A stretch of DNA of 64,000 nt, from the IMG/VR virus record IMGVR_UViG_3300031787_000010, positions 73,429 through 137,428 of that record, one strand, 5' to 3'. Shown here in pieces: positions 210 to 49,777 of this stretch. The first letter of the stretch is position 1; every line of letters starts with the position of its first letter. Position numbers and translations under genes: made by a program. The notes under the pieces were generated by a model that saw only the letters and a program-made list of their open reading frames with translations, did not search any database and had not been told where the DNA came from. The DNA comes from a virus (Duplodnaviria; Heunggongvirae; Uroviricota; Caudoviricetes).

Positions 210-312
210 ATATCGACTTATTAGGTTTGAAAAGTCATATCTATCTAATAATAAATACTAAACCACCATCGATAACTTTCAAAAGATTATCGGTACAAAA
301 TGAAAAGGGAGC

Positions 313-348
313 CCGTTTGATTTCGGGCCCCCTTTCCTTGTATCATTC
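313..348 (-). terminator. rho-independent terminator on the minus strand
   Basis: Minus-strand RNA GGAAAGGGGGCCCG-AAAUCAAA-CGGGCUCCCUUUUC forms a 14-bp stem with two G-U wobbles that pair only in the minus-strand RNA, followed by AUUUUGU. It lies directly 3' of the 413..598 gene. Confidence 0.6.
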
Positions 349-412: not shown

Positions 413-598
413 TTATCCTTCCATCATTTCATCGTCGATACAAGTACATTTGGTGTAGGTATCTTCAAGTTCGACCGTATAGAATCGGGTCATGCCATCA
501 TAACCGATTTGAATCTCTTTGATATACCCATACTGCCCATTACATTCGGACTCAGCGTGATTGACGATTTGAACGTACTCACCGATATTGTATGTCAT
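413..598 (-). CDS. small hypothetical protein (61 aa)
   Basis: Minus-strand ORF consistent with the strand polarity of the whole region. The overlapping plus-strand ORF 227..625 is low-complexity. Confidence 0.4.
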   Translation of the reverse strand: MTYNIGEYVQIVNHAESECNGQYGYIKEIQIGYDGMTRFYTVELEDTYTKCTCIDDEMMEG

Positions 599-621: not shown

Positions 622-801
622 TTAGCGTTCGTCGTCGTAATCGTAGTCGAGGTATTCATACCGATCCATCTCATCCTCATCGGGAATGATTTCCTCGTAG
701 CGAGCCGTTCGGTTCTTACGTGGCGTCTTACTCATTCCAGAATCCTCACGGTCACGGTGCTTCTTGTCATACTTCCGCTGGTCCTTAAACGTCTTACCCA
801 T
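622..801 (-). CDS. small charged protein (59 aa), hypothetical
   Basis: Manual translation MGKTFKDQRKYDKKHRDREDSGMSKTPRKNRTARYEEIIPDEDEMDRYEYLDYDYDDER*. It fills the gap between the 413..598 gene and the MoxR gene; too short for the ORF track. Confidence 0.3.
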   Translation of the reverse strand: MGKTFKDQRKYDKKHRDREDSGMSKTPRKNRTARYEEIIPDEDEMDRYEYLDYDYDDER

Positions 802-844: not shown

Positions 845-2095
845 TTACACGTTCATCGCATAATTAGTGTCGGTCCCGTTGGAAACGTGTTCCCACGGAT
901 TGTTCGTACCAGCCGAGACAGCCGGGAGATACTTCTGGACCAGCTGCTTCATATAGGTACGCTCGGAGTCAACACCACCAGCCTCCGAGAAGAACGGATA
1001 GATACACACCTCAGCGGCCTCCGCGAGATTGAATCCATCGTACATCAGCCCAGCCATCTCTACCGTCAGACGGCTCGAGATAGACGTAGTGACACGGGCA
1101 TCATCGGACTTGACCTGCGCTCGAGTATGAGCGGCGATTTCGGCGATTGCCGTGATGTCCTTCTCAGCGAGATTCGGATAGGTCATCGACAGGAGACGAA
1201 CCTCTTCATCCTTCGACAGCGGTTCCATCTCTACGATAGCCGAGAAACGGTCAAGCATCGCTCGGTCAAGAACGCGAGTGGACGTATACTCCGCACCGAT
1301 ATTCGCCGTAGCGATAAAGGTCACACCCTTGGCAACCTTGATAGTCGGCGTGTCCGGCTTTTCGTCGGTACGCAGGTACCGCTGATTCTCGTCGAGCACG
1401 GTGATAAGGATGTTCCACGCGTCCGGCGTGGCTCGGGTCAACTCGTCCATCAGAATGATGGCGTTCTCCTTCTGAATAGCCTGAGCGAAGAGAGCGTCAG
1501 CCACATAGGTACCCTTCTCCTTATTGTAATGCGTATTACCGATAAGGGTAGAACGCGGGTCCGTAGTAGCGCCGAGGTTGAAGTAGTAATACGGGCGACC
1601 ATTGAGTGCCTTAGCGACACTCTGAACAGCGAGAGTCTTACCACAACCCGAAGGGCCGGTCATCATAATGTTCTTACCACGAACAACGGAACGCATCAGA
1701 TACTTCCACTTCAAGTCGCTGAGGATAAGGTTAGTCGGACGGAGCGAAATACTATCCTTGATATACTGCTCAACATCACCATGCTGCTCATCACTACGGT
1801 TATCCACCGCGTCGAGCGGGGCAGCGGTCTTGCTCAGCGAATCATACAGCGACATATCCGCCGAACGCCACTGCTCACCACCCGTCTTGGTATGAACAAG
1901 GCGGAGACACACGCCGTCACGATCCATCACACGGATCTTGTTCTTCGGAATACGCTTCGTAACATCACGGCCGTTCTGGTCAATCACCGTACCGGCGTCA
2001 GTCAGACGAACCACAATCTGCTCAACCGACTTCTTTACCACATTCTTCGAAACCTTCCGAACCATCTTACGCTTAGCCACGTTTATACTCTCCAA
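845..2095 (-). CDS. MoxR-family AAA+ ATPase (CobS-like)
   Basis: Walker A GPSGCGKT, Walker B ILMDEL, and a MoxR-type arrangement (TANIGAEY...DRAMLDRF). Paired with the downstream VWA protein, as in the CobS/CobT-like pairs of phages. Confidence 0.85.
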   Translation of the reverse strand: MESINVAKRKMVRKVSKNVVKKSVEQIVVRLTDAGTVIDQNGRDVTKRIPKNKIRVMDRDGVCLRLVHTKTGGEQWRSADMSLYDSLSKTAAPLDAVDNRSDEQHGDVEQYIKDSISLRPTNLILSDLKWKYLMRSVVRGKNIMMTGPSGCGKTLAVQSVAKALNGRPYYYFNLGATTDPRSTLIGNTHYNKEKGTYVADALFAQAIQKENAIILMDELTRATPDAWNILITVLDENQRYLRTDEKPDTPTIKVAKGVTFIATANIGAEYTSTRVLDRAMLDRFSAIVEMEPLSKDEEVRLLSMTYPNLAEKDITAIAEIAAHTRAQVKSDDARVTTSISSRLTVEMAGLMYDGFNLAEAAEVCIYPFFSEAGGVDSERTYMKQLVQKYLPAVSAGTNNPWEHVSNGTDTNYAMNV

Positions 2096-2134
2096 AATGA
2101 AATAGGGAAATTGGTACTTCTCGAACCTTCTATA

Positions 2135-2163
2135 AATCTAACAGACTTTCTATGGGGTGTCAA
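2135..2163 (-). promoter_or_regulatory. sigma70-like promoter TTGACA-N17-TAGATT upstream of the MoxR gene
   Basis: Minus strand reads cTTGACAccccatagaaagtctgtTAGATTtatagaagg..GGAGAGtataaacATG; an RBS GGAGAG lies 8 nt before the ATG. Confidence 0.4.
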
Positions 2164-2200
2164 GGGACGTAAGGCTTTGACCTGTAATGCCTTACGTCCC
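2164..2200 (-). repeat. conserved 12-bp-stem hairpin (copy A), terminator-like, fused to the downstream -35
   Basis: GGGACGTAAGGC-tttgacctgtaat-GCCTTACGTCCC. A near-identical copy lies at 4543..4581, with a compensatory extra G:C pair in both arms. Confidence 0.55.
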
Positions 2201-2208
2201 TCTGACCT

Positions 2209-4479
2209 TTACACACCCCGATTGGTCAGTGCTTTGTTGAGGGTACGGATTACGTCAGAAGCGTTTTCGACGTTGACCGCCACTGCATCCTCACCATACA
2301 TCCGGCGGAACACATCCATAGAACGTGTCATACCATAACTGGATTCGGTAATGAAATACGACAATACCTTGATGCCGTGGTCCTTCATATTCTGAACCAT
2401 CTGGCGAGTGTGCTTGAATGCCATCTCACCCTGATAACTACACACCGTAGCATCGTCACCCCAATACGTCCGGCGACCACGCTTCTTCTTCAACATAGAG
2501 CGAAGGTCCAGAGAGAAACCCGGCTCACCATCAGAGAAATTGATGAAGTACACATCGTGAGTAGAAGCACATTCCGTAATCAGTTCCATCGTCGCCTTGA
2601 AACACAGACCCTCGGGAGTCGAACCAGCGGGTGACAAACGAGGAGCCCACTTGAGCCACGAAGTGAACTGGTCCTTACGACTATCGAACACAACACACAC
2701 CACGGGAATATCGTTACCACCGCGAATCGTAATCACCGTATCAATATTGCGCATCTTGTTACCAACATACGCAAGAGCGGTAGCGACCGTCAATACCTTC
2801 TCCCACTTTCGGCCACTCATTGAACCCGAAGCGTCAAGCGTCAAGTGCAACATCGCCGGCTTGAAGGTATCGATGCGTGACTTCTGGAACACGCTGGTAA
2901 TATCCATACCCAGCTGAGCCAACAGTCGGCGGTCAAGACCACCGTGCTGAAGGCGAGTGTTCTTCGTCATCACGGGGTCATTTCGAACCTGGAGACGATG
3001 TACCATAATCTGACCCATGCGCTTACCGGCGGCAATAGCCTTCTTACGAAGATCGTTCTCACGGCTACCATCCCACGATGACCAACTACGGAAGATGAAC
3101 CAGTCCTGCGTAAACATAGCCTCTGACATCTTTCGCGTCACCATACACTCACCGCCGGGAATACCATCACCCTTAAGGTCAACCATCTTAGCCTGCGCAT
3201 TCTCCAGTGCATCAGCGGCGAGAAGTTCCGCCTTCTTAGCCTTCCGCTTCTTCAGCTCACCATTGACAACATCCTTGGCCTTCTCGACCTGTGACTTACC
3301 ACGCTTGTCGTTGAAGTTACGGGGCTTCTCCTTACCAGCCTTCGTCTTATCAGCCTCTTCGACTTCCGTAGGAACCATCTGACCCCGAGGAATGTCCAGA
3401 TTCGGAAGATTGTTAGTAGAATCAATCACAGACTGTGCCGAAGGAAATCCATCCATCGGCTGATTGTTATAGGTAGGAACGCCTTCATTGCCCTTATTCG
3501 CATCTTCCATACTACGAGCGACGAAACGAAGAATGTAAGCGTAAAGTTCGTTGGCCGTCTGCCAAATAGCAGGCATGTGGTCATACGAAATAATATCCTT
3601 CCACACCTTATCGGTCGGAGCGATACGCTCAATGTTTCGAAGGTCCATCATCTTGATAAGAGTATCCAAGCCGGGAAGCGCAGTCGGATTCGATGCCGGG
3701 TGAATAACAAACAATAGACGATTGATGTAGTTCTCAACAGTCAGTTCACGCCAGCTCGGATTCCAGCGAAGATTACGTTCAATCTCCGTAGTAAAAAAGT
3801 ACCTTTCATACAGGCTATCGTAGTAAGGACGATATCCACCGCAATTCTGATACACATACTTGTCGATACGACGATCTTCAAGGATGTTCATAATCATCTG
3901 CAGGTCGTGAACATACTGACGAGCAACACGTGCATACAATGTCACATTGTCCGAATGACGGGCATTGGTCATCGCAGGTGGGAGTAGTGCCGCAAGAGAC
4001 GGATGGAGAATCTTCTTAAGGACAGTACTCACTTCAATTTGTTCATCATAGCCGTGATTCTGCTGTGGGAGAACGCGATTGCCCCATCGGGTATCGATAC
4101 CCCAATCGGTGTCAATCTGCTTGGCAACTTCAGCTACAGCGGAAACAAATTCAAAGTCGCTCAGAAGAACGTGACTACCTTCGTGGAGAGCGAGGCCGAC
4201 CATAGAATCGAAATGATTGGGATTGTCGTCAGCGGCGATGATAACTTCCTTACCATCGGTGTAACTATCCTTGCCCGACGAATACCGAACCGGAATATCA
4301 TTACGACCTGTCAGAATGTTGACAAAGTTCGCAGTGGCACGACGAGCGGCACTGAGCCGAGCGACCCGTGCCAGATTGGCAATTTCCTCTGTCTCCTCGA
4401 CACCATCCTGCAGTTCGTTCTCATCGTCGAAGAGGTCAGAGTCCAGCCAGTAGTTAGAATGAGAGGTGTTTTTCGTCAT
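2209..4479 (-). CDS. von Willebrand factor A domain protein (CobT-like partner of the MoxR ATPase)
   Basis: 756 aa. VWA/MIDAS-like region (LTLDASGSMSG), a long acidic/lysine-rich linker, and adjacency to a MoxR AAA+ gene. Confidence 0.75.
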   Translation of the reverse strand: MTKNTSHSNYWLDSDLFDDENELQDGVEETEEIANLARVARLSAARRATANFVNILTGRNDIPVRYSSGKDSYTDGKEVIIAADDNPNHFDSMVGLALHEGSHVLLSDFEFVSAVAEVAKQIDTDWGIDTRWGNRVLPQQNHGYDEQIEVSTVLKKILHPSLAALLPPAMTNARHSDNVTLYARVARQYVHDLQMIMNILEDRRIDKYVYQNCGGYRPYYDSLYERYFFTTEIERNLRWNPSWRELTVENYINRLLFVIHPASNPTALPGLDTLIKMMDLRNIERIAPTDKVWKDIISYDHMPAIWQTANELYAYILRFVARSMEDANKGNEGVPTYNNQPMDGFPSAQSVIDSTNNLPNLDIPRGQMVPTEVEEADKTKAGKEKPRNFNDKRGKSQVEKAKDVVNGELKKRKAKKAELLAADALENAQAKMVDLKGDGIPGGECMVTRKMSEAMFTQDWFIFRSWSSWDGSRENDLRKKAIAAGKRMGQIMVHRLQVRNDPVMTKNTRLQHGGLDRRLLAQLGMDITSVFQKSRIDTFKPAMLHLTLDASGSMSGRKWEKVLTVATALAYVGNKMRNIDTVITIRGGNDIPVVCVVFDSRKDQFTSWLKWAPRLSPAGSTPEGLCFKATMELITECASTHDVYFINFSDGEPGFSLDLRSMLKKKRGRRTYWGDDATVCSYQGEMAFKHTRQMVQNMKDHGIKVLSYFITESSYGMTRSMDVFRRMYGEDAVAVNVENASDVIRTLNKALTNRGV

Positions 4480-4513
4480 AGTCCTATATGAAGGGGTTTT
4501 GGGGATACGTTGA

Positions 4514-4542
4514 AATGTACCTACAAACTACCCCAAAGTCAA
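4514..4542 (-). promoter_or_regulatory. sigma70-like promoter TTGACT-N17-TACATT upstream of the VWA gene
   Basis: Minus strand reads cTTGACTttggggtagtttgtaggTACATTtcaacgtatccccaaaa. A TTTGGGG/CCCCAAA inverted repeat brackets the -10. Confidence 0.4.
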
Positions 4543-4581
4543 GGGAGCGTAAGGCTTTGTCCTGTAATGCCTTACGCTCCC
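4543..4581 (-). repeat. conserved 13-bp-stem hairpin (copy B), terminator-like, fused to the downstream -35
   Basis: GGGAGCGTAAGGC-tttgtcctgtaat-GCCTTACGCTCCC. Same element as 2164..2200, with a covarying base pair. Confidence 0.55.
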
Positions 4582-4593
4582 TTCCCTACGCAT

Positions 4594-4761
4594 TTAGTCT
4601 CTGATTTCCGTCTGTATTAGTACTATTCGACGTTTATTATAACGTATTAATGTATTATATAGTATTATTATAATAGATGATACTACTGTGATAAATAGTA
4701 TTACACCTGCTATAATACAGAATATCGTCCAGAGTAATATACGTTTAAGTAGTTCAATCAT
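4594..4761 (-). CDS. small hydrophobic membrane protein (55 aa)
   Basis: Manual translation MIELLKRILLWTIFCIIAGVILFITVVSSIIIILYNTLIRYNKRRIVLIQTEIRD*. Its ATG overlaps the ThyX stop (ATGA coupling). Lies in the AT-rich gap between ThyX and hairpin copy B. Confidence 0.4.
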   Translation of the reverse strand: MIELLKRILLWTIFCIIAGVILFITVVSSIIIILYNTLIRYNKRRIVLIQTEIRD

Positions 4762-5570: not shown

Positions 5571-5609
5571 TATAACTCCGTTTAGTCTTGAAAGATAACA
5601 ATACTATGT

Positions 5610-5638
5610 AATCTACTCACATCATTCACATTTGTCAA
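5610..5638 (-). promoter_or_regulatory. candidate promoter TTGACA-N17-TAGATT inside the 3' end of the upstream gene, driving thyX
   Basis: Minus-strand TTGACA at 5638-5633 and TAGATT at 5615-5610. The leader carries ACGGAG 8 nt before the thyX ATG. Confidence 0.3.
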
Positions 5639-6461
5639 TCACTCGTTGAATTATATCCCGTGTATCATATTCAGGCGTATATCCAAGTGATTGCAATTTA
5701 CTATTGTCCATATACATCGATTTTACTTGTACGATTTTATGAAAGTTGGGTGCATCTACATATGTAATCTCGCTCGTTGAACCTAGCATTCTACGTGCGT
5801 CCATAACAATATCATATAGTGAAACAGCTTTACCGTTTCCTATATTGTAGATCTCATTCACTTCACCCCTTGTCAATACCATATCAATAGCTCGGACACA
5901 ATCATCTAAATCAATAATGTCTCTATACAACTGTCCACCATCATATAAAGGTACTGGTTCATTTTTGTGTAAAGACTTTATCATATGTACGATTGCATTT
6001 TTCTTTGTAGATGCTTTTCTATCTGACAGTCCTACTACGTTTGCCAATCGAAGTATACGATATTTTATCCCAAACGTTTGACAATACGATATGAGCATCT
6101 GTTCCGCTGTACGTTTCGTGATTGAATAGAACCCCTTCGGATTACAATAAGACGTTTCTTTTGCCGGTAAATCCGTGTCTCCGTATACGAACCACGACGA
6201 TATGAAATTGAATACGGTATTTTCTCTATCTTGTATGTTTTGAAGTACGGTGATCAACGTAGTTAGATTCGTGTTTATATCAATAAACGGGTCATAGAAT
6301 ACATTGTAGTTATCTACCGTAGAAATGAAATACAGAATGTTGTTTGTTTTCGGTGAATAATCGTTTCGTTGGTTTACAACACAATTCGGATATAGTTCAA
6401 CATAACGTGAACCGACAAATCCCTTCCCACCAAAAACGTTTATTGATTCCATTTCGCACAC
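5622..6461 (-). CDS. NAD(P)-dependent sugar epimerase/reductase (SDR family; abequose-synthase-like)
   Basis: N-terminal GGKGFVGS Rossmann motif, about 280 aa, located in the sugar-nucleotide cluster. Confidence 0.65.
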   Translation of the reverse strand: MCEMESINVFGGKGFVGSRYVELYPNCVVNQRNDYSPKTNNILYFISTVDNYNVFYDPFIDINTNLTTLITVLQNIQDRENTVFNFISSWFVYGDTDLPAKETSYCNPKGFYSITKRTAEQMLISYCQTFGIKYRILRLANVVGLSDRKASTKKNAIVHMIKSLHKNEPVPLYDGGQLYRDIIDLDDCVRAIDMVLTRGEVNEIYNIGNGKAVSLYDIVMDARRMLGSTSEITYVDAPNFHKIVQVKSMYMDNSKLQSLGYTPEYDTRDIIQRVIDKCE

Positions 6462-7741
6462 ACTTCATCAATATAGTTCAATACTTCTTCCGTATAATGT
6501 GGTGGACATCCCAAAAAGAACACGTTACTCAATGCTAGATTGGCAAGGGGATACTCCTTGTAATTACCCAAGTGTGAATACCCTGGGTGTAGTAAGATGT
6601 TACCAGCGAAATAGTTTCGAGTCTGGATTTTGTTATCCTCGAAGTGCTGTTGGAGTTTCGTTTTCATTTGCGAATCTTCAACATAAATCGGAACACCAAA
6701 CCACGAAGTTTCGGCGAGTTCACTTTCTTCAACCACACGGACGCCCTTGATGTGTTTCATAATACTTTCGTGAATACGTTGCTTACTGTTTCGACGCCCA
6801 CTATGAATCGTATCAAACTTTTCTAACTGTGCCATACCGATTGCGCCTTGAAGGTCAAGCGGCTTGAGATTGTATCCCATCTGTGTGAATACATACTTGT
6901 GGTCCACGACGCCATTATATCCTTCGAGCCACGTATCAAATCGTTTCCCACACGTTCCGCATGCAAGAAGGTTTGCTGCTCCGACACAATAACAATCACG
7001 GCCCCACCACGAAATACTTCGAGCAAGGTCAATCAATTTTTCATCATTAGAACACACCATACCACCTTCACCTGTCGTAATATGATGTGCTGGATAGAAC
7101 GAACACGACCACGCGTAGTAGTATTCGTTGATAAGTTTATCGTTCCAATGTGAACCCAGACTATCGCAATTGTCCCCGAGTAGAATCAGGTTGTGTGATT
7201 CACAGATACCTTTCAGTATATCCATATTAGGCGGATTACCGAGTACGGGAGAAACGAAAATGGCTTTGGTGCGTGGAGTAATCTTTTTGACAATCTCCAT
7301 CAAATCAAAGTTTAGCGTATCTATTTCGATATCGACGAATACCGGCTTCAATCCATTCTGAACGAGCGGGGCTATCGTCGTAGGGAATCCAACGGGTGAC
7401 ACAATAACCTCATCACCATCTTCCCAACCTAAATACTTCTTGACTGCAGCAACTAGTACAAGATTTGCCGAAGAGCCAGAATTTACCATATGGGCAAACC
7501 TTACCTTGAATAATTCAGCAAATCGTACTTGAAACTTGTTGACGTATTCACCAGACACTAACCACTTCCCCGTAAGGAATGCAGTCAATGCCATACGGAT
7601 TTCATTGTCATCAAAGAATGGACCAGAATAATAGACGGGTGATTTACCCGGCACAAAGTCCTTACTATTATACGCCCACTTCGGTTGGACTGCTTTTGTC
7701 AATTCATCTATAAGCAGCTCTATACGTTTATCGTCTGTCAT
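6440..7741 (-). CDS. DegT/DnrJ/EryC1-family PLP/PMP-dependent sugar 3-dehydratase/aminotransferase (RfbH/E1- or ColD-like)
   Basis: 433 aa with the DegT fold pattern. A Cys cluster CYCVGAANLLACGTCGKRF is reminiscent of the [2Fe-2S] site of CDP-4-keto-6-deoxyglucose 3-dehydrase E1. Confidence 0.8.
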   Translation of the reverse strand: MTDDKRIELLIDELTKAVQPKWAYNSKDFVPGKSPVYYSGPFFDDNEIRMALTAFLTGKWLVSGEYVNKFQVRFAELFKVRFAHMVNSGSSANLVLVAAVKKYLGWEDGDEVIVSPVGFPTTIAPLVQNGLKPVFVDIEIDTLNFDLMEIVKKITPRTKAIFVSPVLGNPPNMDILKGICESHNLILLGDNCDSLGSHWNDKLINEYYYAWSCSFYPAHHITTGEGGMVCSNDEKLIDLARSISWWGRDCYCVGAANLLACGTCGKRFDTWLEGYNGVVDHKYVFTQMGYNLKPLDLQGAIGMAQLEKFDTIHSGRRNSKQRIHESIMKHIKGVRVVEESELAETSWFGVPIYVEDSQMKTKLQQHFEDNKIQTRNYFAGNILLHPGYSHLGNYKEYPLANLALSNVFFLGCPPHYTEEVLNYIDEVCAKWNQ

Positions 7742-8640
7742 AATTCCTCTCTATCTAAAACCGTTTTGAGATACTTCCCATATTCTGTCTTACTGCATAG
7801 TTCAATAAATGGCGTGACACCTTCTCTTGTTACCCATTTCTTTGTAATTGCAATTTCGTGCGGACTACCAACAAGATAGTTTTGATGTTTCTGTACATTG
7901 TGAATGAAATTTGCTGCTTCTAACATTGCTTCAGCATTTCCCGTATCAAACCACACCATACCTCTCGACAATTGTACAGCTTCCATCTCTCCTCTATCAA
8001 GATAATACTTGTTTAAATCGGTGATTTCAAGTTCACCACGTTTGGACGGTGACAACATCGTAGTATAAAGATACACGCTTGTGGGATAAAAGTAAAGGCC
8101 GGTAACTGCTAAATTACTTTTTGGTTTTGTAGGCTTTTCTTCAATCGATATAACTTTATTATTCATTACTTCAGCAACACCAAACAACTCTGGATCTCTG
8201 ACAGGGTATAGGAACACTTCTGCTTTCTTTCTGATTCCTTCTTTATTCACCTCATCTAACAATCCCCGCAATCCAGAACCATAAAAAATATTATCTCCAA
8301 GAATTAATGCATGTGCATCATATTCGAAAATTTCATTTTGAATAGTATTGTGTACGATATTGAATGCATCAGCTATACCGAGAGGAACTGGTTGTACTAG
8401 ACATCGTACAGAAATTCCTAACTCTTCTTTTGCGTTAGCAAACAACTTATTGAAACTATCTAATTCGCCTGGAGAGCTGATGATTATAAAATCTCGAACA
8501 CCTGCCAACATCAATGTCGAGAGTGGATAATAGATAAGGGGTTTATCGTATACCGGAAGTAGTTGTTTGGTGGCAACTAACGTAGAAGGATACAAACGTG
8601 TTGACTTTCCACCAGCTAATATTATACCGAGAGTTCGCAT
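7738..8640 (-). CDS. rmlA: glucose-1-phosphate thymidylyltransferase
   Basis: MRTLGIILAGGKSTRLYPSTLVATKQLLPVYDKPLIYYPLSTLMLAG is a near-canonical RmlA N-terminus. The start was moved to the Met at 8640; the ORF track's 8673 start would overlap rmlB. Confidence 0.85.
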   Translation of the reverse strand: MRTLGIILAGGKSTRLYPSTLVATKQLLPVYDKPLIYYPLSTLMLAGVRDFIIISSPGELDSFNKLFANAKEELGISVRCLVQPVPLGIADAFNIVHNTIQNEIFEYDAHALILGDNIFYGSGLRGLLDEVNKEGIRKKAEVFLYPVRDPELFGVAEVMNNKVISIEEKPTKPKSNLAVTGLYFYPTSVYLYTTMLSPSKRGELEITDLNKYYLDRGEMEAVQLSRGMVWFDTGNAEAMLEAANFIHNVQKHQNYLVGSPHEIAITKKWVTREGVTPFIELCSKTEYGKYLKTVLDREEL

Positions 8641-9596
8641 TGTTCCATCCAAGTAACATTTGAAAGATACCATTCGACAGTTTTATATAACCCTTCCTCG
8701 AATGACACGGAAGGTTTCCATCCTAATTCTTTTTCTATCTTTTCTATGGACATCGCATATCTAAAGTCATGTCCCTTTCTATCCTCGACATATTCAATCA
8801 AGGATTCATCTCTGTTCATTATATGAAGAATCAATTTGACTACATCGATGTTTGCCCGTTCAGAATTGCCACCAATGTTGTATACCGAACCAATCTTCCC
8901 ATCCAACAATACACGATATAGAGCTCTACAATGATCATCAACGTGTAACCAATCTCGTATATTCATTCCCGTGCCATACACCGGAATACGTTCATTCTTC
9001 ATTGCCTTTCGAATCACAGTCGGTATCAGCTTCTCTGGATATTGTCGTGGTCCATAGTTGTTGGTGCAATGGGTGATGATAGCTGGTAGATTGAATGTCT
9101 TGTTGAATGCTCTGACTAAATGATCCCCACCTGCTTTCGTAGCGGAGTATGGACTATTCGGTGCGTATGGTGTGGATTCTGTAAACGGAGGGTCATCAGT
9201 TGATAAATGTCCGTACACTTCATCGGTTGAGATATGAATGAATCTAAACCGTGCTCCAGTTTCGTTATATCGTCGAAGAGCACAGAGGAAGTTATAAGTG
9301 CCCATCAGATTCGTTTTGACAAACGCATCGGGGTCAGCGATGGAACGATCAACGTGTGTTTCAGCAGCAAAGTTGATGATGAAATCTGGTTTATGGTTCA
9401 ATATAATCGTATCGATGATAACTGGGTCACCGATGTCTGCTTGATAGAAGAGATACCGTGAACTCTTTGGATGAGAGGTCACGCCTGCGTATGTCAACGC
9501 ATCGACATTGATAATATAATAATCAGTATGTGTCAGTAGAAACTCTATGAAGTTGCTACCGATAAACCCACAACCACCCGTAACTAGTATTTTCAT
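8622..9596 (-). CDS. rmlB: dTDP-glucose 4,6-dehydratase
   Basis: MKILVTGGCGFIGSNF...VDALTYAG and a YxxxK catalytic motif, the classic RmlB pattern. Confidence 0.9.
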   Translation of the reverse strand: MKILVTGGCGFIGSNFIEFLLTHTDYYIINVDALTYAGVTSHPKSSRYLFYQADIGDPVIIDTIILNHKPDFIINFAAETHVDRSIADPDAFVKTNLMGTYNFLCALRRYNETGARFRFIHISTDEVYGHLSTDDPPFTESTPYAPNSPYSATKAGGDHLVRAFNKTFNLPAIITHCTNNYGPRQYPEKLIPTVIRKAMKNERIPVYGTGMNIRDWLHVDDHCRALYRVLLDGKIGSVYNIGGNSERANIDVVKLILHIMNRDESLIEYVEDRKGHDFRYAMSIEKIEKELGWKPSVSFEEGLYKTVEWYLSNVTWMEQCELSV

Positions 9597-10450
9597 AAAT
9601 TATTGATATACTCCCGTAACCTATCGTTTGGTACCCAACCTAGTCTATCTACTGCATCATTATTCTCTCGACGCGTTTCCTTATAGTTTCCTTGTTGGTC
9701 TGGAAGTCTTATGAATCCGACTTTGAATTTATCGCGGAACATATGATACACTTCATTTAGTGAATAGTTATTTCCCGTTCCAAGTTCCCACGCATCGTGG
9801 TGACGTTCATTTGATTGTCCGATTCGAATCAATCCATCTACTATATCGTCAATATGTGTGAAATCTCTACGTTGTTCCCCGTCTCCGACAATAGTAATTA
9901 ATTCACCTCGTTCTACTTGTCCTCTCCATTTACCAATAACTGCCGCCCAATCACCTTCTGTAATCTCACGCGGTCCATACACATTGTAGAATCTGGTTAT
10001 TTCTATTTCCATATTATAGATTGTACGATACGTCTTACACAACTCCTCACCCATATGTTTAGATAAAGCATATGGAGATATAAACGGGTTGTGCCATCTG
10101 GACGAAGAGCCGGCATATATCACCTTTATATTTCTAGAACGTGCCCATTCTAATACGGAAAGAGTACCATTTGTATTTACTTCGACAGTTTCAGTTGGAT
10201 TTTCAAACGATGGTTGTATTCTAGATAATGCCGCTAGATGATACACTACGTCTATATCATATGGTTGTAACGCCGTAAATAAATCATCCCGTACATCAAA
10301 CTGTAGGTATGTCGCACCGTCGTGTTCATTTTCAACCGTACCAACTTCGTAATTGTCTACTGATATTACTTGACATCCTTCGTTCAATAATCTACGAATT
10401 AAGTTAGTACCGACAAAACCAACACCGCCCGTAACCAATACACTTTTCAT
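9593..10450 (-). CDS. NAD-dependent epimerase/dehydratase family protein (possible 4-ketoreductase)
   Basis: VTGGVGFVGTNLIRRL Rossmann motif and YALSK (YxxxK). Confidence 0.7.
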   Translation of the reverse strand: MKSVLVTGGVGFVGTNLIRRLLNEGCQVISVDNYEVGTVENEHDGATYLQFDVRDDLFTALQPYDIDVVYHLAALSRIQPSFENPTETVEVNTNGTLSVLEWARSRNIKVIYAGSSSRWHNPFISPYALSKHMGEELCKTYRTIYNMEIEITRFYNVYGPREITEGDWAAVIGKWRGQVERGELITIVGDGEQRRDFTHIDDIVDGLIRIGQSNERHHDAWELGTGNNYSLNEVYHMFRDKFKVGFIRLPDQQGNYKETRRENNDAVDRLGWVPNDRLREYINNL

Positions 10451-10459
10451 AACTACTCC

Positions 10460-10711
10460 TCAATAACCATCACCATAGATAGAGAACTGCTTCGGCGGAA
10501 TAACTGGATCCGCTTCTTCCACTACTTTAAATATCGTACCTTGAGCGGCATCGATATAATACTGACGATTGCCCGTCTTTTGAAAATAATGTTCTAATGA
10601 TTCTGTGAGACTTGGAAACACCCGCGTTCCAATCGGTTGTTCACGATCATCTAACTCCATCCATCTATCACCAGGCGGGACTCGTTTAAATATTGGTTTT
10701 TTTACTTCCAT
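10460..10711 (-). CDS. hypothetical protein (83 aa)
   Basis: ORF in operon context. Confidence 0.4.
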   Translation of the reverse strand: MEVKKPIFKRVPPGDRWMELDDREQPIGTRVFPSLTESLEHYFQKTGNRQYYIDAAQGTIFKVVEEADPVIPPKQFSIYGDGY

Positions 10712-10714
10712 AAC

Positions 10715-12649
10715 TTATCCTAGAATATCTCTGTTAGCTTGTTGTAGTAATTTAGCGAAGTCATCGTGTACTGCCATAATTAATTTCCACGTTGAACCAT
10801 ATGCAATACCGTCCGGTCTGGATACAATTTCTGCTATAGGTATTGCCGATCCTCCTGTCTTTGCTTGATACACAATAGACGGAGGAGGTGGTTCATCACG
10901 AATAGTTAATTTCTGTTCAATCTCGTCGAAATTATCTGTACCGAATACTTTCTTCAGAATAGTTCTGTCTGCGATAGTATCACCTAGTGCCATACTTTCT
11001 TCACCCTCGAATAAAGCACGCAGAGGAAATGCATCACGAATAGACTTTAAAAGTCCAGTACGCGCTTGTTTATCTGTCAATAAGAAGTCACGAACTGCTC
11101 TAGAATGTTTATGTGAGTTAGCCACTAGCTTGTCAGCATATCTACCACTTTCTGTATTCTTACCGATACCACGCATGATTGACAACATAGTTTTGTTCTG
11201 GTCGGCAGTGTTTCCACCAACGACACTTGTAAGCGCCGCTTTAAATTCATCACCATTCTTAAATGATTGTTTGGACAACTTATTCAGACGGTCTGCTATT
11301 TGTTTAGCATATGCTTCTTTTTGATTTAGACTTTTCGCAATCTCTGCTGCGATTGTGGCTTTTTCTTTTACACTAGCCTTTGCCCACCTACCCATAAAGG
11401 ATTTAACTTCCTTCATAGCACCTTGGTCATTTAGAAAATCATCGTACAACTTTTGTTGTCTTTGAATTGCCTTTTCAACCTTTACATCATCTGGAACATC
11501 TGCGTTATACTTTTTAACCATCTCATCACGTTGCTTAACCAAAACAGCACGTTCACGTTTGTTTTGTGCAGTTGGTTCTCTGCCAAGAGCATCTATACGA
11601 GCGTTCAAATCTTCGTAAACTTCAATATCTTCTTGACTCGCTCTACCATATACCATAATGTCGGCAACGCGACCCGAAGTTGCATTAAGAAGATTTGCTC
11701 TCAATTCCTTTTTCAAAGAAATTTCGTCAAGAACTGTCTTTCCCCCAACTTTTACTTTTGCGTATACGTCTGTAGAGAATCCCTTATTATTTTTATAGTC
11801 TGCTAAACCGAGTCCTTCGACCTCATCCTTAATGTCCCAGGCCATATTATCTAATTCCCAATTGCCCTTCCCATATTTTTGATCATATCTCTTGAACATT
11901 GCAGTTCTTACTCGTTGAGCCGACTTGACCCAGGCCGAATCGATGATACTTTCCTTTCCTTTTTCCATTGCCTTAACGTGAGATGAAACCAACTGAAAAA
12001 ATTCCGTAGCTTTCTTTTCATCTTTAATAGTCAATGCCATCATAGTCAACAATTCACCCGTAGTCGATGATAATGTACCTGCTCCAGAAGCATCAGTAAA
12101 ATCCGTGATGGTAAGCGCACCAGGCTTCGTACTTAATAGTCTGGATAGTACTTTGACATACTTACGAGGGAACCGCGTTTTTCCGTTTTTATCTAAAAAG
12201 AATGCTTCTATTTCTTGCGGTTTAATTGATTTACTTGTAGGTTTTACTTTTGGATTCTTTCTGAAATCCGCATCACTTACGCCGTCTTTAGCAAATCTAC
12301 TATCGGTATTGAACTGTTCTGTAGTTTTTACTTTCTGATCCAAATCCTTTTTCTTTGGAGTACCACGACGCTTTTTTGGTTCAGCGGATGTTGATGTTTT
12401 CGATGGTTGTTCTGCTGGTTTAACTTTGGCAGCCTTTGCTGTGGTTTTTTTCGGTGCCTTTGCTTGTCGTGACTTAAGTAATGCCTGATATTGATTCCAC
12501 GCTGGATGTTTTTCACCCTTGGTTCGAATGGTTTTTACGGTTGCCTCACCTTCCTTCCCCTTGGCATCCTTATATTTAATAATTTGTTTATCGAGTTCTT
12601 CATCTTCATTTAGGATTGATGCAAAAAACTCCACAAGTAATTCTTTCAT
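10715..12649 (-). CDS. large lysine-rich protein with a histone-H1-like low-complexity segment
   Basis: 644 aa. AKAPKKTTAKAAKVKPAEQPSKTSTSAEPKKRRGTPKKK segment. No enzymatic motif recognised. Confidence 0.5.
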   Translation of the reverse strand: MKELLVEFFASILNEDEELDKQIIKYKDAKGKEGEATVKTIRTKGEKHPAWNQYQALLKSRQAKAPKKTTAKAAKVKPAEQPSKTSTSAEPKKRRGTPKKKDLDQKVKTTEQFNTDSRFAKDGVSDADFRKNPKVKPTSKSIKPQEIEAFFLDKNGKTRFPRKYVKVLSRLLSTKPGALTITDFTDASGAGTLSSTTGELLTMMALTIKDEKKATEFFQLVSSHVKAMEKGKESIIDSAWVKSAQRVRTAMFKRYDQKYGKGNWELDNMAWDIKDEVEGLGLADYKNNKGFSTDVYAKVKVGGKTVLDEISLKKELRANLLNATSGRVADIMVYGRASQEDIEVYEDLNARIDALGREPTAQNKRERAVLVKQRDEMVKKYNADVPDDVKVEKAIQRQQKLYDDFLNDQGAMKEVKSFMGRWAKASVKEKATIAAEIAKSLNQKEAYAKQIADRLNKLSKQSFKNGDEFKAALTSVVGGNTADQNKTMLSIMRGIGKNTESGRYADKLVANSHKHSRAVRDFLLTDKQARTGLLKSIRDAFPLRALFEGEESMALGDTIADRTILKKVFGTDNFDEIEQKLTIRDEPPPPSIVYQAKTGGSAIPIAEIVSRPDGIAYGSTWKLIMAVHDDFAKLLQQANRDILG

Positions 12650-12693
12650 ATGTTATCTCTAGCTATTGGACTTATATAAATATTACCACAAAC

Positions 12694-13074
12694 TCACTTT
12701 GCCCACTTTCTACGAGTAACTAACTGGCAAATAATACCGTAAACCGACAAGTCTTGGAACGTATCATCTACGCTTTCACCAACAGCATCCGGCTTACCCA
12801 ACACAACCATTTGCTTTAATCGTTGAATCTTATCATTCATACGGAACCAGAGTCCAGTTAAAGACAATTTAATATCATCTTCAGTCTGTAACGAAGTACC
12901 TACTGAAATGTTGGATGGTCCGTAGTTTAATTGCTTGGAACAAAATGTGTCGTACTGTTCCATACAAATCTTTAAGAACTCCGCAGTCATTCCCGGATAT
13001 TCGTTCTCAATCTGCTCTATTGCTGCGTTGTTTCGTGCTTCAAATTCTACTGTAATAACCTTTTTCATATACAC
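12694..13074 (-). CDS. hypothetical protein (126 aa)
   Basis: ORF in operon context. Confidence 0.4.
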   Translation of the reverse strand: MYMKKVITVEFEARNNAAIEQIENEYPGMTAEFLKICMEQYDTFCSKQLNYGPSNISVGTSLQTEDDIKLSLTGLWFRMNDKIQRLKQMVVLGKPDAVGESVDDTFQDLSVYGIICQLVTRRKWAK

Positions 13075-13080
13075 CTCTTA

Positions 13081-13938
13081 TTATGTTGATATTGGCCGAA
13101 CGCCACAAATCATTCCGTATTCATCAAACATCGGCAATCCGCCCCATTTCTTGATGAATAGTCCAGCGTTTCTATTTTCAAATGCTAATAATCTATTAGA
13201 ACGAGTCATTACATCATTTGGAAAATTACTATTAAAACTTCTACTAGCAAAATGATACACCATAGACGAACCCGTGAGTACAAATTTAAACCCTTTATGT
13301 CGCATTGTCAAGAACAAATCGTGGTCCTCAAACGCAGCAGGATTATACTGTGGATCGTTTCCACCTGATTCATCCCAATCTGACTTGCGGATCATAAATG
13401 AACACCCCCATGCCAAAGGAATTTCATACTCTTCGTTTTCTTTGGTAAACTCGGTTGCCCATTCATCAAATACGTCCTGTCGGAAATCGTGGTGAAACGC
13501 ACCAAATTCATTATTAGGAGTTATGATAACTCCAGGTCGAGATGATGTACCAACAAAGACGTTTGGTTCTACACGATGTGATGTTACAACCAATTTTTCA
13601 TTTGGATACTTATCAAATAGTTTCAAGAGTGCTAAATCTTGATCAGGAGCAACGTACATATCGGCGTGTAAGAAATGTATAAATTCAGTTTCTACAACCT
13701 TTGCCATTTCATTCATACCATAACCGATACCACAGGTGTCATCTGGACAATCGATAATGATAGGCTGGATGTTCAGTCTTTCCTTATTCTCTTCTAGCCA
13801 TTCGTTTGTACCATCCGTACAATTTTCTGCTGCTACAATAATCTTCGTATCTTTGAAGTGATGATTCTTCTTGATAGATTCAATCGCCAACTTTAGATAT
13901 GGTAGATTGTTATTTGATCCTATGCATGTTGTAATCAT
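13081..13938 (-). CDS. glycosyltransferase family 2-like
   Basis: GT-A-like N-terminus (KIIVAAENCTDGT) with DxD-like acidic motifs. Confidence 0.55.
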   Translation of the reverse strand: MITTCIGSNNNLPYLKLAIESIKKNHHFKDTKIIVAAENCTDGTNEWLEENKERLNIQPIIIDCPDDTCGIGYGMNEMAKVVETEFIHFLHADMYVAPDQDLALLKLFDKYPNEKLVVTSHRVEPNVFVGTSSRPGVIITPNNEFGAFHHDFRQDVFDEWATEFTKENEEYEIPLAWGCSFMIRKSDWDESGGNDPQYNPAAFEDHDLFLTMRHKGFKFVLTGSSMVYHFASRSFNSNFPNDVMTRSNRLLAFENRNAGLFIKKWGGLPMFDEYGMICGVRPIST

Positions 13939-13941
13939 AAA

Positions 13942-14805
13942 CTAATTCCTTTGTAAATCCATTACAAACTTGGTGAATATTTCTAACGACTCTTGTGCGT
14001 ATTTCTTGTACACATCATCATGTCGAGTTGACGATGTGTTTGTTCTTTTATTAGGATGACCGTAGTTGTGTCCTTTTATTCTTGTACTCACAAGATATTG
14101 TGGCCATCCTTTTGATTCAAAGAATCTCTCGGCACTAGTATCATCATATATGAAATGTAAATTTTCTGGTATGAACTTTTCGTTTATACCGCCCGACAAT
14201 GCGAGTAACGAACCATCAAACTTACAAACTGGAAGCTGTATGATTTCTATATCATATTGATTGTTGAACGTATTAAGTTGCTCTAGATTGATGATATCAG
14301 AAGAATTGAGAGGATACGGGGCAGTGTATATCTGTTCCCGTGTTCTCTGATATTTCACAATGTCTTTGTGCTCCACAACATCCCACGTGCTATCCCACAT
14401 CTTCCTAGAAGATAGTGTAAGAGCGTGAGGATTCTTGAAGTCAACTTCCGATAGTATGTAAAAATAATCTTCAGGCATCAAACAGTCTGATTCACCCCAC
14501 ACAGTATACTTTGCGTTAGGGTCATATACATCTCTACGCCAATCAGTTGCATTATAGAACCCATCATCGTTTGTTTTATATATCAGTTCCGCATCTTTTA
14601 ATAGATTGTGATGTAGAAACATATTAAACATTTCTTCTGGTTCGCCCATTTCGGGAGATTCTATAAACGTTTGTGCGTTTAAACAAAACTGAAGCTTAAC
14701 CGGCAACTTGCTATGTTTTAGTGCACGTTCTACAGAAGTAAGCGTTTCATATATCATACGAGACTCATACCACATAATATGCATTTGAAACAATATGTGT
14801 GACAT
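13942..14805 (-). CDS. hypothetical protein in the glycan cluster
   Basis: 287 aa, no clear motif. Confidence 0.4.
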   Translation of the reverse strand: MSHILFQMHIMWYESRMIYETLTSVERALKHSKLPVKLQFCLNAQTFIESPEMGEPEEMFNMFLHHNLLKDAELIYKTNDDGFYNATDWRRDVYDPNAKYTVWGESDCLMPEDYFYILSEVDFKNPHALTLSSRKMWDSTWDVVEHKDIVKYQRTREQIYTAPYPLNSSDIINLEQLNTFNNQYDIEIIQLPVCKFDGSLLALSGGINEKFIPENLHFIYDDTSAERFFESKGWPQYLVSTRIKGHNYGHPNKRTNTSSTRHDDVYKKYAQESLEIFTKFVMDLQRN

Positions 14806-14806
14806 A

Positions 14807-15490
14807 CTATACCTCGTTACTCCAATCTACCAGAGGTGCTGCCCAATAAGGTTCACAGTGCGTATTTCTCGAAGGTATCGGTGTTGCTAATGCTCTTCCT
14901 CTTTTCAACAAATCCGTAAATGTTGCGAAATCATTTGACAATCCGTGTTGCGAGTGTCCTATGAAAACATCTGCGTCTTGTCTAATTGTACCAACTAATG
15001 TAGCAAATGTATATGTTGTACTGTTGGTAAGTTTCCAGTGCGAACTTTTAGTTAAGAATACTTTTGTTATTTCCGAACCATCTTTTTCTATGAGAGGATT
15101 TGCTCCTTGTTCTGGTAACAAATACTTGTCAATGTGGTCATATAAAGATACATAATGCGCTCGAGTCAATCCTTCTAACAAAATCTTTCTAGAATCTTCT
15201 CTGTGAATGTAATCATCTTCTACAAAGTATACTACCTCGTCATCCGATAGAGTCAGTACTTCATTTAGAATAGCTTTAAATCCAGCAGCGTTTCCTAGTG
15301 CGGTTCTCCTTAACTCACAACCAAACGATTTAAGCCAGTCAAAAAATTCATCAGAGACATTATCAGCCCAGATAATAGTTTCCTCTTTTGGAAAATGCCG
15401 TAGAAAATTGTTCAAGCAGTTTTCTTTTGTTGCAAAAGGAAATCTTTGTTTATTGTTTGAATGTTCGGAAATTCTGTAGAAGTTTCTCAT
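14807..15490 (-). CDS. hypothetical protein in the glycan cluster
   Basis: 227 aa, no clear motif. Confidence 0.4.
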   Translation of the reverse strand: MRNFYRISEHSNNKQRFPFATKENCLNNFLRHFPKEETIIWADNVSDEFFDWLKSFGCELRRTALGNAAGFKAILNEVLTLSDDEVVYFVEDDYIHREDSRKILLEGLTRAHYVSLYDHIDKYLLPEQGANPLIEKDGSEITKVFLTKSSHWKLTNSTTYTFATLVGTIRQDADVFIGHSQHGLSNDFATFTDLLKRGRALATPIPSRNTHCEPYWAAPLVDWSNEV

Positions 15491-16242
15491 ATACTACCCG
15501 TGTATTGATAGGTCATTCCAAAATGTCGCATCCGTTCCAGATCATTCATTCTATTAATTTTACCAAAGAAACCATACATTCCAGACTCCGCGTTTCTTGC
15601 ATAATCGGACATAGTAAGATTTGCTTTATTATCTTTCACGGTTTGTGCTGAAAAATGTATTAGGCTTAACGTATCCGTCACACCAGTTTTCCATCCTTTA
15701 TCTTCACACACAACGCCTGTGTATATATCCAAACCCCATCCGTATACTAAATCCATATCATATTGTCCAATAGTATCCAGTACATCACGGCGTATTAATG
15801 GACACATGAAGTCTACCCATTTCACCGTTCTGGTTTTAGAAGCACCCCAATTGTGCATTTGCTTCCAGAAACATTGTCCTTCTTCTGGTTGTGTGACGGA
15901 AGATGCTACTACTGCATAATCTTCATCAAACATTATACTACGCAACTTTGAGATATAATTGTATCCGTGTAAGATAATATCATTACTCATAAACAACATA
16001 GAATCATACTGCTCGTTTTGTTGCATTAACTGCATGGCTAGATTAAATCCACCACCAAAATAACAATTTGTTTCCGACTGATACATGGTGTATTGCGATA
16101 CTTCGGATGTATCGGTACTACCATTATCTAGAACTACCACATCATATTGATCTTTAGCATATGGTGCAACCATTCTATAAACACGATCGGTATATTCACG
16201 TCTATTGTGATTTAAAATAACCGCTAATGTTTTACCCATCAA
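15487..16242 (-). CDS. glycosyltransferase family 2
   Basis: YDVVVLDNGSTD GT2 signature. Confidence 0.6.
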   Translation of the reverse strand: MMGKTLAVILNHNRREYTDRVYRMVAPYAKDQYDVVVLDNGSTDTSEVSQYTMYQSETNCYFGGGFNLAMQLMQQNEQYDSMLFMSNDIILHGYNYISKLRSIMFDEDYAVVASSVTQPEEGQCFWKQMHNWGASKTRTVKWVDFMCPLIRRDVLDTIGQYDMDLVYGWGLDIYTGVVCEDKGWKTGVTDTLSLIHFSAQTVKDNKANLTMSDYARNAESGMYGFFGKINRMNDLERMRHFGMTYQYTGSI

Positions 16243-16555
16243 TCACCTCATGCCATTTACCAACAGGACAATACGTTTTCTTGAACATAGATTTCGTATT
16301 CATAAAGCACCCACACTGCGAACAACGTTCGGACCTATTATCAAAAAACTCACAACTATGACATTCTTTGAGTCGGTCATTACGAATATCTTCAGTTACA
16401 AATGCACCTTCTCCAGCCATAACGCCACCGACTATATCTTTAGCACTACTTAAAAATCCTTTTAATTGATTATAAGCTGATGGCATGTTCTTGGGTGGTT
16501 CGACTTCATCATTACACTCCGGTTCTGCACATACGCCAAACGGGTCTTTAGTCAT
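16232..16555 (-). CDS. small Cys-rich (zinc-binding) protein
   Basis: CHSCEFF...CSQCGCF...CPVGKW cysteine pattern. Confidence 0.35.
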   Translation of the reverse strand: MTKDPFGVCAEPECNDEVEPPKNMPSAYNQLKGFLSSAKDIVGGVMAGEGAFVTEDIRNDRLKECHSCEFFDNRSERCSQCGCFMNTKSMFKKTYCPVGKWHEVIDG

Positions 16556-16558
16556 ACA

Positions 16559-49714: not shown

Positions 49715-49728
49715 ATAACCTCGTTTTA

Positions 49729-49777
49729 AGTTTCACTCTTAAATATACAAAAACCCTCAACCGAAGTCAAGGGTTTT
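49729..49777 (-). terminator. composite terminator/promoter upstream of the polB gene
   Basis: Hairpin AAAACCC...GGGTTTT followed by UGUAUAUUU starts at the stop codon of the upstream gene. Inside it lies TTGACT-N17-TATATT (-35 at 49765-49770, -10 at 49742-49747). The polB RBS is ACGAGG. Confidence 0.55.

Follow-up and report, generated by a model that had tools for sequence, protein, structure and literature searches.

In T4-type phages, the promoter-early stem-loop (PeSL) has been described as a G-run/C-run stem-loop that stands before a strong, near-consensus sigma-70 promoter (Arbiol et al. 2010, PMC2839356; Comeau et al. 2014, PMC4122927). Experiments on the PeSLs of RB49 and phi1 showed that they terminate transcription and form mini-circles by recombination, and similar elements were later reported in T4/PST and KVP40/nt-1 (PMC2839356, PMC4122927). 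Here, we examine an element that resembles them in a 64,000-nucleotide stretch of DNA from a tailed phage (Caudoviricetes; IMG/VR record IMGVR_UViG_3300031787_000010, positions 73,429 to 137,428), which is referred to as the window and whose positions are used throughout. Near one end of the window, two copies of a hairpin flank the gene of a protein with a VWA domain, the next gene encodes a MoxR-class AAA+ ATPase, and each copy is followed directly by a predicted promoter. On balance, we lean, without great confidence, towards regarding the two copies as PeSL-like hairpin-plus-promoter cassettes that would make the VWA and MoxR genes separate expression units by attenuation or insulation at the RNA level. 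The features concerned are the following.

4541–4583, minus strand: hairpin copy B, with a 13-bp stem GGGAGCGTAAGGC/GCCTTACGCTCCC and the loop ATTACAGGACAAA; the 27-nt family core is at 4549–4575.
4514–4542, minus strand: predicted sigma-70-type promoter of the VWA gene, TTGACT (4542..4537), 17-nt spacer, TACATT (4519..4514).
2209–4479, minus strand: 756-aa VWA protein, with an N-terminal HExxH region and a C-terminal VWA domain that has a metal ion-dependent adhesion site (MIDAS).
2163–2201, minus strand: hairpin copy A, with a 12-bp stem GGGACGTAAGGC/GCCTTACGTCCC and the loop ATTACAGGTCAAA; the 27-nt family core is at 2169–2195.
2135–2163, minus strand: predicted sigma-70-type promoter of the MoxR gene, TTGACA (2163..2158), 17-nt spacer, TAGATT (2140..2135).
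845–2080, minus strand: MoxR-class AAA+ ATPase, 411 aa from GTG 2080, with the ribosome-binding site GGAGAG.
302–337, minus strand: canonical intrinsic terminator, with a 14-bp GC-rich stem, an 8-nt loop and a U-rich tail.

Since the first 25 kb of the window carry genes on the minus strand only, the hairpins are read on that strand. Copy A (2201..2163) then has the sequence A-GGGACGTAAGGC-ATTACAGGTCAAA-GCCTTACGTCCC-T and is preceded by the stop codon TAA of the VWA gene (2211..2209), and copy B (4583..4541) has the sequence AA-GGGAGCGTAAGGC-ATTACAGGACAAA-GCCTTACGCTCCC-TT and comes immediately after the stop codon (4596..4594) of a 55-aa open reading frame (ORF). Both copies are set in the same order of signals, namely stop codon, hairpin, −35 box, 17-nt spacer, −10 box, ribosome-binding site and start codon. 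The stem of copy A gains one further A-U pair with the first T of the −35 box, and that of copy B reaches 15 bp through the first two T of its −35 box. The outer stems are GGGA/TCCC in copy A and GGGAG/CTCCC in copy B, the extra G in one arm of copy B being matched by an extra C in the other. The loop comprises 13 nt, or 7 nt when the inner A-U pairs are formed, and differs by one base between the copies, with the centres ACAGGTC and ACAGGAC. These observations bear out the initial annotation, which had reported two hairpin copies flanking the VWA gene, their place between a stop codon and a TTGAC(A/T) −35 box, and the inserted G with its matching C. Still, the PeSL-type composite cassette, the membership in a large cross-phage family and the missing U-tract of a terminator had gone unseen in it.

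The two copies are direct repeats around one gene, and the two intergenic regions are alike only across the hairpin and the TTGAC that follows. The predicted RNA folds have energies of −30 kcal/mol for copy A (z −4.89) and −36.3 kcal/mol for copy B (z −6.05). A stem-anchored pattern matched twice, against 0.09 matches expected by chance, and a covariance model of the wider family (R1), run over the whole window with filters off, returned only copies A and B (E 4.5e-9 and 1.4e-8), the next best match having E>1; chance repetition is ruled out on both counts. The same phage was found in at least 39 blocks of the metagenome collection, and in all six of the independent assemblies that we fetched (JGI and ENA freshwater samples) both hairpins are identical to those of the window. 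This agreement rules out a duplication made in assembly, which the initial annotation had allowed for. Rfam 15 has no family that matches at the gathering threshold, and its sole overlapping match is a chance-level miRNA (E 5.6). A search of the whole window and of the relatives, which the initial annotation had proposed together with a tabulation of covariation, gave no more copies in the window, homologues at the corresponding sites of relatives, and a third copy outside the window in the same phage. This third copy lies about 6 kb beyond the window start in a small-ORF region and is followed by CCCCC-TTGACA-N17-TATTAT; at that site, a strain that is 98% identical overall bears a different hairpin subtype.

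The resemblance to PeSLs lies in a stem-loop with a G-run and a C-run directly before a sigma-70-like promoter, which is found at both copies, in a cassette that spans the intergenic space from stop to start, in repeats that flank genes, and in the likeness of copies within a genome. The locus departs from PeSLs in four respects. The C-rich 3′ arm here abuts or overlaps the −35 box, from which no AT-rich stretch separates it; a U-rich tail is missing; three copies are known in the roughly 72 kb of this phage that were covered and flank conserved genes, whereas PeSLs are many, lie in hyperplastic regions and flank ORFans; and the mid-stem CGTAAG..CTTACG is conserved beyond one lineage, whereas published PeSL stems are lineage-specific. 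Because of these four differences, we call the element PeSL-like and do not treat it as a proven PeSL member.

The place of the hairpins was compared in viral and metagenomic loci that we fetched and labelled with L-numbers. Among GenBank phages, megablast gave no close relative of the window; the nearest deposited genomes are those of Microcystis phage Mel-JY01 and a 484-kb uncultured phage, with MoxR proteins only about 48% identical, and the nearest non-identical VWA proteins are 61–66% identical. The VWA gene precedes the MoxR gene in all relatives, including those without the hairpin, and all of them have a TTGAC(A/T)-N17-TATATT-like promoter ahead of both genes. Homologous CGTAAG..CTTACG hairpins, 4–6 nt before the −35 box, are present at one or both sites in L067, L064, L066, L153, L157, L001, L101/L103 and L144/L150. 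Upstream of VWA in L067, the hairpin reads GGGGTCGTAAGGC...GCCTTACGACCCC; its 29-nt core and loop are the same as in copy A, and its outer stem, GGGGT/ACCCC, which also occurs in L066, differs from GGGAG/CTCCC of copy B by two double-sided changes. In the window clade, a sigma-70-like promoter lies within 60 nt downstream in 19 of 20 hairpins, against 3% of random positions.

Pairing has been maintained while the sequences changed. When 19 clade hairpins are aligned in a fixed register, the proportion of paired cells is 78%, compared with 73% for shuffles (0/500 reach this value), double-sided changes occur in 8 of the 17 pairs, and covariation scores 0.211, compared with 0.144 for shuffles (0/500) and 0.06–0.13 with the partners slid; pair 16-32 is UA in 14 hairpins, GC in 5 and unpaired in none. 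The earlier argument that covariation reveals a functional structure is thus upheld as regards maintenance of the stem. The single matched G/C indel on which it had drawn is weak evidence on its own, because correction of palindromes by template switching can produce matched changes without selection. In the gene-strand orientation, the 10-bp core of the clade hairpins has 11 G.U against 2 A.C pairs (two-sided binomial p ~0.02), which leans towards action as RNA but is a count over copies that are not phylogenetically independent. The cores share 24.1 of 27 bases within a genome and 20.4 of 27 across genomes, at orthologous and non-orthologous sites alike (permutation p = 0.0003), and this within-genome likeness indicates concerted evolution or co-evolution with a genome-specific factor.

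In more distant relatives, the same sites hold unrelated GC-rich hairpins whose arms enclose the −35 box and which are followed by a T-run, so that each forms a compact terminator overlapping the promoter. Such replacements were found upstream of VWA in L001, L154 and L156, and between VWA and MoxR in L155. Since one type of hairpin has been exchanged for another at a fixed place, these loci provide the best indirect argument that a hairpin at the transcript end is needed there.

The layout of the locus is most likely VWA promoter, VWA, hairpin A, MoxR promoter, MoxR, a 59-aa and a 61-aa ORF, and terminator. The MoxR promoter has 10 of 12 consensus matches and a TG upstream of its −10 box, promoters of the same kind as the two in the window are kept at the same places in relatives, and the terminator at 337..302 is probably the end of the VWA–MoxR transcription unit. 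The G+C content at third codon positions (GC3) is 0.64 in MoxR, 0.54 in VWA and 0.62 in the 59-aa gene, against 0.29–0.44 in neighbouring genes, and positions 845–4479 form a GC3 island with 49–54% GC against about 39% overall. As the same GC3 excess is common to the relatives, it points to the codon bias of well-expressed genes rather than to recent acquisition, and a recently acquired GC island is ruled out by the clade-wide synteny and GC3 excess. The codon bias fits high expression of the VWA, MoxR and 59-aa genes.

For the hairpin itself, the role of an RNA-level attenuator or insulator is the most likely one. Transcripts entering from upstream would fold the hairpin at their 3′ end, and the folded hairpin would attenuate read-through or form a stable or processed 3′ end, and would shield the promoter that starts right after the stem. 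VWA and MoxR would be two separately driven units, probably highly expressed, which end at the terminator at 337..302. As the copies are repeats, they may recombine with or convert one another within a genome. The family core is joined to different neighbouring signals in different phages. A parallel is offered by the conserved RNase III hairpins of T7-like phages, which likewise lie between genes of transcription units without a U-tract, and by analogy the hairpins would leave a protective 3′ stem on the upstream message; the stems here differ in that they are uninterrupted, span only 13–17 bp and have no similarity to T7 R sites. The reading of the locus as a set of expression units is moderately well supported. 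It gives a concrete predicted expression map for a widespread phage MoxR/HExxH-VWA pair, with two promoters, two insulating hairpins and one terminator, and would carry the concept behind PeSLs, that of composite regulatory cassettes which recombine, beyond cultured T4-type phages.

The window copies are members of a wider family with the consensus cGTAAGTCCTT-N7-AAGGACTTACg, a 27-nt core in which T2, A3, A4, TT 9-10, AA 18-19, T24, T25 and A26 are invariant or nearly so in 104 copies. A loop-anchored pattern, GTAAGNNNTTACAGGNCAANNNNTTA, matched 8 IMG/VR loci and 63 metagenome loci; in most of these viral and metagenome matches the complementarity extends into the flanks, and the majority of them have no gene in common with the window. 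When IMG/VR was scanned with exact-stem and GC-flanked loop patterns, it gave coding or chance matches only. The loop-anchored pattern matched 14 genome or metagenome-assembled genome (MAG) loci in 185,579 bacterial and archaeal genomes (596 Gb), where about 17 are expected by chance, so that these genomes hold no evidence of a host origin. In a loop-independent scan of 1.27 Mb of collected sequence there were 160 matches, against 4 in shuffled sequence, which represent 104 distinct hairpins. The contigs that carry them come from marine, freshwater, sediment and gut samples and fall into dozens of contig groups. The family was not found in 50,697 deposited phage genomes searched at blastn sensitivity with the consensus and the window variant, and a full-text search of a library of papers for the motif sequence gave no record. 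It is conserved across unrelated uncultured phages and uncatalogued in Rfam and in deposited phages.

Within this family, 54% of the 104 hairpins lie no more than 45 nt behind the stop codon of an ORF with 60 codons or more (27% for random positions), and in 21 of the 104 the TAA inside GTAAG is the stop codon itself. Of the 84 hairpins outside the clade, 10 are followed by a sigma-70-like promoter at a distance of up to 60 nt, the value for random positions again being 3%. Among 90 members, covariation is modest though higher than in controls (0.180 against 0.142; 0/500), and the mean T fraction after the hairpins is 0.18. Several contigs carry 5–7 copies per 4–12 kb of small-gene regions, and the copies are often arranged as tandem pairs with a spacing of exactly 53 nt and a GC-rich hairpin in between; such pairs occur in unrelated phage contigs (L079, L096, L132, L094, L128, L117, L135 and L071), where the four arms permit alternative long pairings (to −75 kcal/mol) and could form a composite structured element. 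In L069, a 160-nt cassette is repeated at least seven times, each unit consisting of a stop codon, the hairpin, a GC hairpin, GACTTACG-N5-TTGACT-N17-TATAAT and an ATG. The GC hairpin of this contig, GTGCCCCGCGAAGCGGGCTAAACC (at about 4160–4200 and in at least six other cassettes), resembles a type I-E CRISPR repeat, with CCCCGCG..CGCGGGG and then ATAAACC, and recalls solitary repeat units and RNA anti-CRISPRs (PMC10651486).

Several observations weigh against RNA-level attenuation or insulation. No U-tract follows either stem, the tails being UUGACACC in copy A and UUGACUUUG in copy B, and a terminator scan called neither copy; efficient intrinsic termination is therefore doubtful, and a canonical intrinsic terminator, for which the stem is present, was rejected on the missing U-run and the negative scan. 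Termination needs no conserved core stem or loop, yet the core stem and often the loop are conserved across phages without common genes. The orientation of the loop relative to transcription is mixed in the family (10 forward and 14 reverse in one count, 12 and 9 in another), and the loops of the two copies are mutually reverse-complementary in L067, L064, L144 and L157; hence, a single specific RNA sequence cannot be read in the loop. Taken over all 17 bp of the stem, G.U and A.C pairs show no strand bias (18 against 16 in one count; 43 against 30, p 0.16, in another), and symmetric changes can arise without selection when palindromes are corrected at the DNA level by template switching. Furthermore, the window has two copies in 64 kb, with one more just outside, and these flank a conserved gene and not variable ORFans; neither a VWA-less variant nor any deletion variant was seen. 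Conservation of the core, its division into two 5-2-5 sub-palindromes and the 53-bp spacing are left unexplained by termination, which keeps an operator and a mobile palindrome alive as models.

As an operator, the palindrome would be a double-stranded DNA site for a dimeric regulator of phage or host, one of many dispersed sites that a global regulator would bind, placed just ahead of the −35 box and with its centre about 55 bp before the predicted start. The strong conservation of the core in 104 copies, function that is apparently independent of orientation, the two 5-2-5 sub-palindromes (recognized by inspection), and the tandem copies exactly 53 bp, or about five helical turns, apart in several phages are all in keeping with such a site. 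So is the greater likeness of copies within a genome than between orthologues (p = 0.0003), which is expected with a genome-specific protein, and a homodimer also predicts the symmetric covariation at core pair 16-32. In three contig groups (L082, L126, L131, L072 and L120), the palindrome stands 140–170 bp upstream of a ParB/KorB-like gene, a position that agrees with this model and where, from its sequence context, it could be a centromere-like or operator site; in L082, the only case with both neighbours mapped, this gene is divergent from a primase-like gene. The KorB OB sites of RK2 and the stoperators of cluster A mycobacteriophages are similar in having many intergenic copies, some by promoters, in a genome-specific variant; they differ in being 13–14 bp long without extended flanking complementarity, and stoperators are asymmetric and oriented. 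What makes the operator unlikely in our judgement is the outer stem, which pairs a G-run with a C-run without sequence conservation and differs within one genome by the matched G/C indel, a pairing that a protein site does not need. Many copies also overlap stop codons or lie far from promoter-like sites, and no candidate binding protein was found that the window and the other motif contigs have in common. In a search for a cognate binding protein by co-occurrence, gp88-like, L5 gp82-like and ParB-like proteins and a small 'GNYC' family recurred, none of which links the window to the other motif contigs; no Pfam family, DNA-binding or otherwise, was found for 'GNYC' and related members. A broader proposal, which we put forward only tentatively as possible but doubtful, is that cGTAAGTCCTT-N7-AAGGACTTACg is a phage-specific element read by its sequence, whether by a regulator, a recombinase or an RNA-processing enzyme, and is the hallmark of a horizontally shared mobile regulatory cassette; the window copies would then be a lineage-specific variant coupled to promoters. 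If a specific factor does read the core, the family would be a new signal, for regulation or mobility, that many phages have in common, and if none does, it would be a phage counterpart of bacterial repetitive extragenic palindromic (REP) elements.

The idea that the hairpin is itself a small palindromic repeat of the REP or miniature inverted-repeat transposable element kind, either selfish or neutral, which is spread and homogenized by recombination or by a transposase acting in trans, is tolerated in intergenic DNA only and adjoins promoters only incidentally, takes up the same wide distribution. A nearly unchanged core in dozens of contig groups without genes in common with the window, 5–7 copies per 4–12 kb in either orientation in some contigs, concerted evolution within genomes and the different subtypes of 98%-identical strains at the third site would all follow from it, and template switching at palindromes can give symmetric changes. 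REP elements and bacterial interspersed mosaic elements (BIMEs) are likewise short GC-rich intergenic palindromes with many copies at gene 3′ ends, in either orientation and under concerted evolution, and are thought to stabilize the upstream mRNA. The family differs from them in that it resides in phage contigs and matches bacterial and archaeal genomes at about chance level, lacks the GTAG head of REPs in the alignment, and has no REP-associated RAYT transposase in sight; among the flanking ORFs examined, no copy had a transposase beside it. We consider this account improbable, since orthologous sites in the clade hold the hairpin within a few nt of the −35 box despite deep divergence, a promoter lies just downstream of 19 of 20 clade copies, and neither an empty/filled-site pair nor a target-site duplication was seen. 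Least probable is that the direct copies are sites of site-specific recombination, of the dif, lox or attC kind, with 10-bp inverted arms around a 7-bp asymmetric centre, and that VWA is an excisable or exchangeable cassette. The 10-7-10 architecture of the core and the direct repeats around a single gene conform to it, and the authors of the PeSL study had raised the possibility (PMC2839356). However, the centres of the two window copies differ, the copies are inverted in L067, L064, L144 and L157, which would lead to inversion and not excision, and the VWA–MoxR synteny is ancient and present without the hairpin too. No recombinase was found among the subset of window proteins scanned with Pfam and PHROGs, and the single mapped mosaic junction is away from the hairpin. 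That junction belongs to a 1.8-kb block, beyond the window in the same phage, which is 97.7% identical between L023 (18799–20631) and L101 (1–1833), where VWA and MoxR are about 74% identical, and which points to recent exchange. The block holds the third hairpin-plus-promoter copy, and its one mapped end is a plain gene boundary beside a tRNA gene in L101, so that the hairpin is not the breakpoint at this end.

Turning to the proteins of the locus, the MoxR gene most likely starts at GTG 2080 and not at TTG 2095, which gives 411 aa, as also called in metagenome annotations, in place of the 416 aa of the initial annotation. The protein matches the Pfam families AAA_5 (73.8 bits; cut-off 22), bpMoxR (45.8; 27) and CbbQ_C (22.7; 20.6) as well as PHROG phrog_249, and carries both the AAA_5/MoxR-type domain and the CbbQ/NorQ-type C-terminal region of its class. 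Its closest solved relatives, by matches to PDB sequences, are the AAA domain of midasin (3.5e-24), NorQ (4.7e-9) and CobS. The VWA protein belongs to a family of 3,385 proteins (E<=1e-20) and has no Pfam match above threshold; its CobT_C match scores 18.4 bits, below the Pfam cut-off of 21, and spans 47 residues only. The MIDAS residues D549, S551, S553, T621 and D650 are invariant among 22 homologues, and the HExxH residues H99, E100 and H103 are invariant in the N-terminal region (GLALHEGSH, residues 95–106). This region of about 500 residues has no Pfam or PDB sequence match and, judging from its motif, could be a metallopeptidase-like domain fused to the VWA domain.

An AlphaFold model of the VWA protein has a mean predicted local distance difference test (pLDDT) score of 74, with 85–92 across most of the VWA domain. 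The top Foldseek match of this domain is the NorD VWA domain in the NorQ–NorD complex (9qh6_G, E 2e-7), followed by other VWA domains. Because the modelled domain is closest to NorD bound to NorQ, the pair is NorQ/NorD-like rather than specifically CobS/CobT-like. The CobS/CobT likeness proposed in the initial annotation is retained for the ATPase, which is near midasin, NorQ and CobS, and lost for its partner, in view of the NorD match, the subthreshold CobT_C score and the additional HExxH region; in addition, no CobN was found among the window proteins scanned. NorQ/NorD, CbbQ/CbbO and CobS/CobT all join a MoxR AAA+ ATPase to a VWA protein, which the present pair resembles in the AAA_5 and CbbQ_C domains of its ATPase and the MIDAS of the neighbouring VWA domain; it differs from them in the roughly 500 N-terminal residues with HExxH and in the gene order, VWA and then MoxR.

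Three small ORFs accompany the pair.

4594–4761, minus strand: 55-aa low-GC ORF (GC3 0.18), also a gene call in L024, L026 and L027.
622–801, minus strand: 59-aa highly charged protein, directly after MoxR and with a high GC3 like MoxR.
413–598, minus strand: 61-aa ORF, the last gene before the terminator.

The 59-aa protein has a basic N-terminal half and an acidic C-terminus rich in Tyr and Asp. A gene of 58–61 aa follows MoxR in every relative examined, and its product is possibly a third component or client of the MoxR/VWA pair.

Beyond the pair, the window is a replication, nucleotide and sugar-metabolism module of a large phage, with PolB, RNR, DnaB, UvsX, ThyX, dTDP-sugar enzymes and glycosyltransferases. 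A run of sugar-nucleotide genes at 5600–24700 on the minus strand (NTP transferases, epimerases/dehydratases, a DegT aminotransferase, GT2 and other glycosyltransferases) points to a phage that carries out glycan or DNA-sugar modification on a large scale. No tRNA genes were called in the window; a tRNA-like element of about 107 nt at 41835–41941 (minus strand), which was called by neither ARAGORN nor Rfam, combines an acceptor-like stem, GGCGGCG/CGCCGCC(A), with a canonical T-arm, GGAGTTCGAATCTCC, the two being separated by a long insert. In two loci of a Nitrospiraceae MAG (L141 and L152), the family palindrome abuts what appears, from inspection of the sequence and not from a tRNA call, to be the 3′ end of a tRNA gene; the contact may be accidental, or the palindrome may be a terminator or mark where an integrated element ends, in a setting where genome matches occur at chance level. 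As for the host, a relative of the window phage (L144/L150, contig CAZXGO010000038.1) was binned in a Chitinophagales MAG, a weak hint that fits poorly with promoters of the TTGACA-N17-TATAAT type, which is not that of Bacteroidota. Upstream of the DNA polymerase gene, at 49715–49775 on the minus strand, a compact terminator overlaps a promoter in the form AAAACCCTTGAC-TTCG-GTTGAGGGTTTTTG-TATATT. The −35 box TTGACT of this element (49775..49715) lies within the stem and the U-tract doubles as the promoter spacer, a design also present upstream of VWA in L001, L154 and L156.

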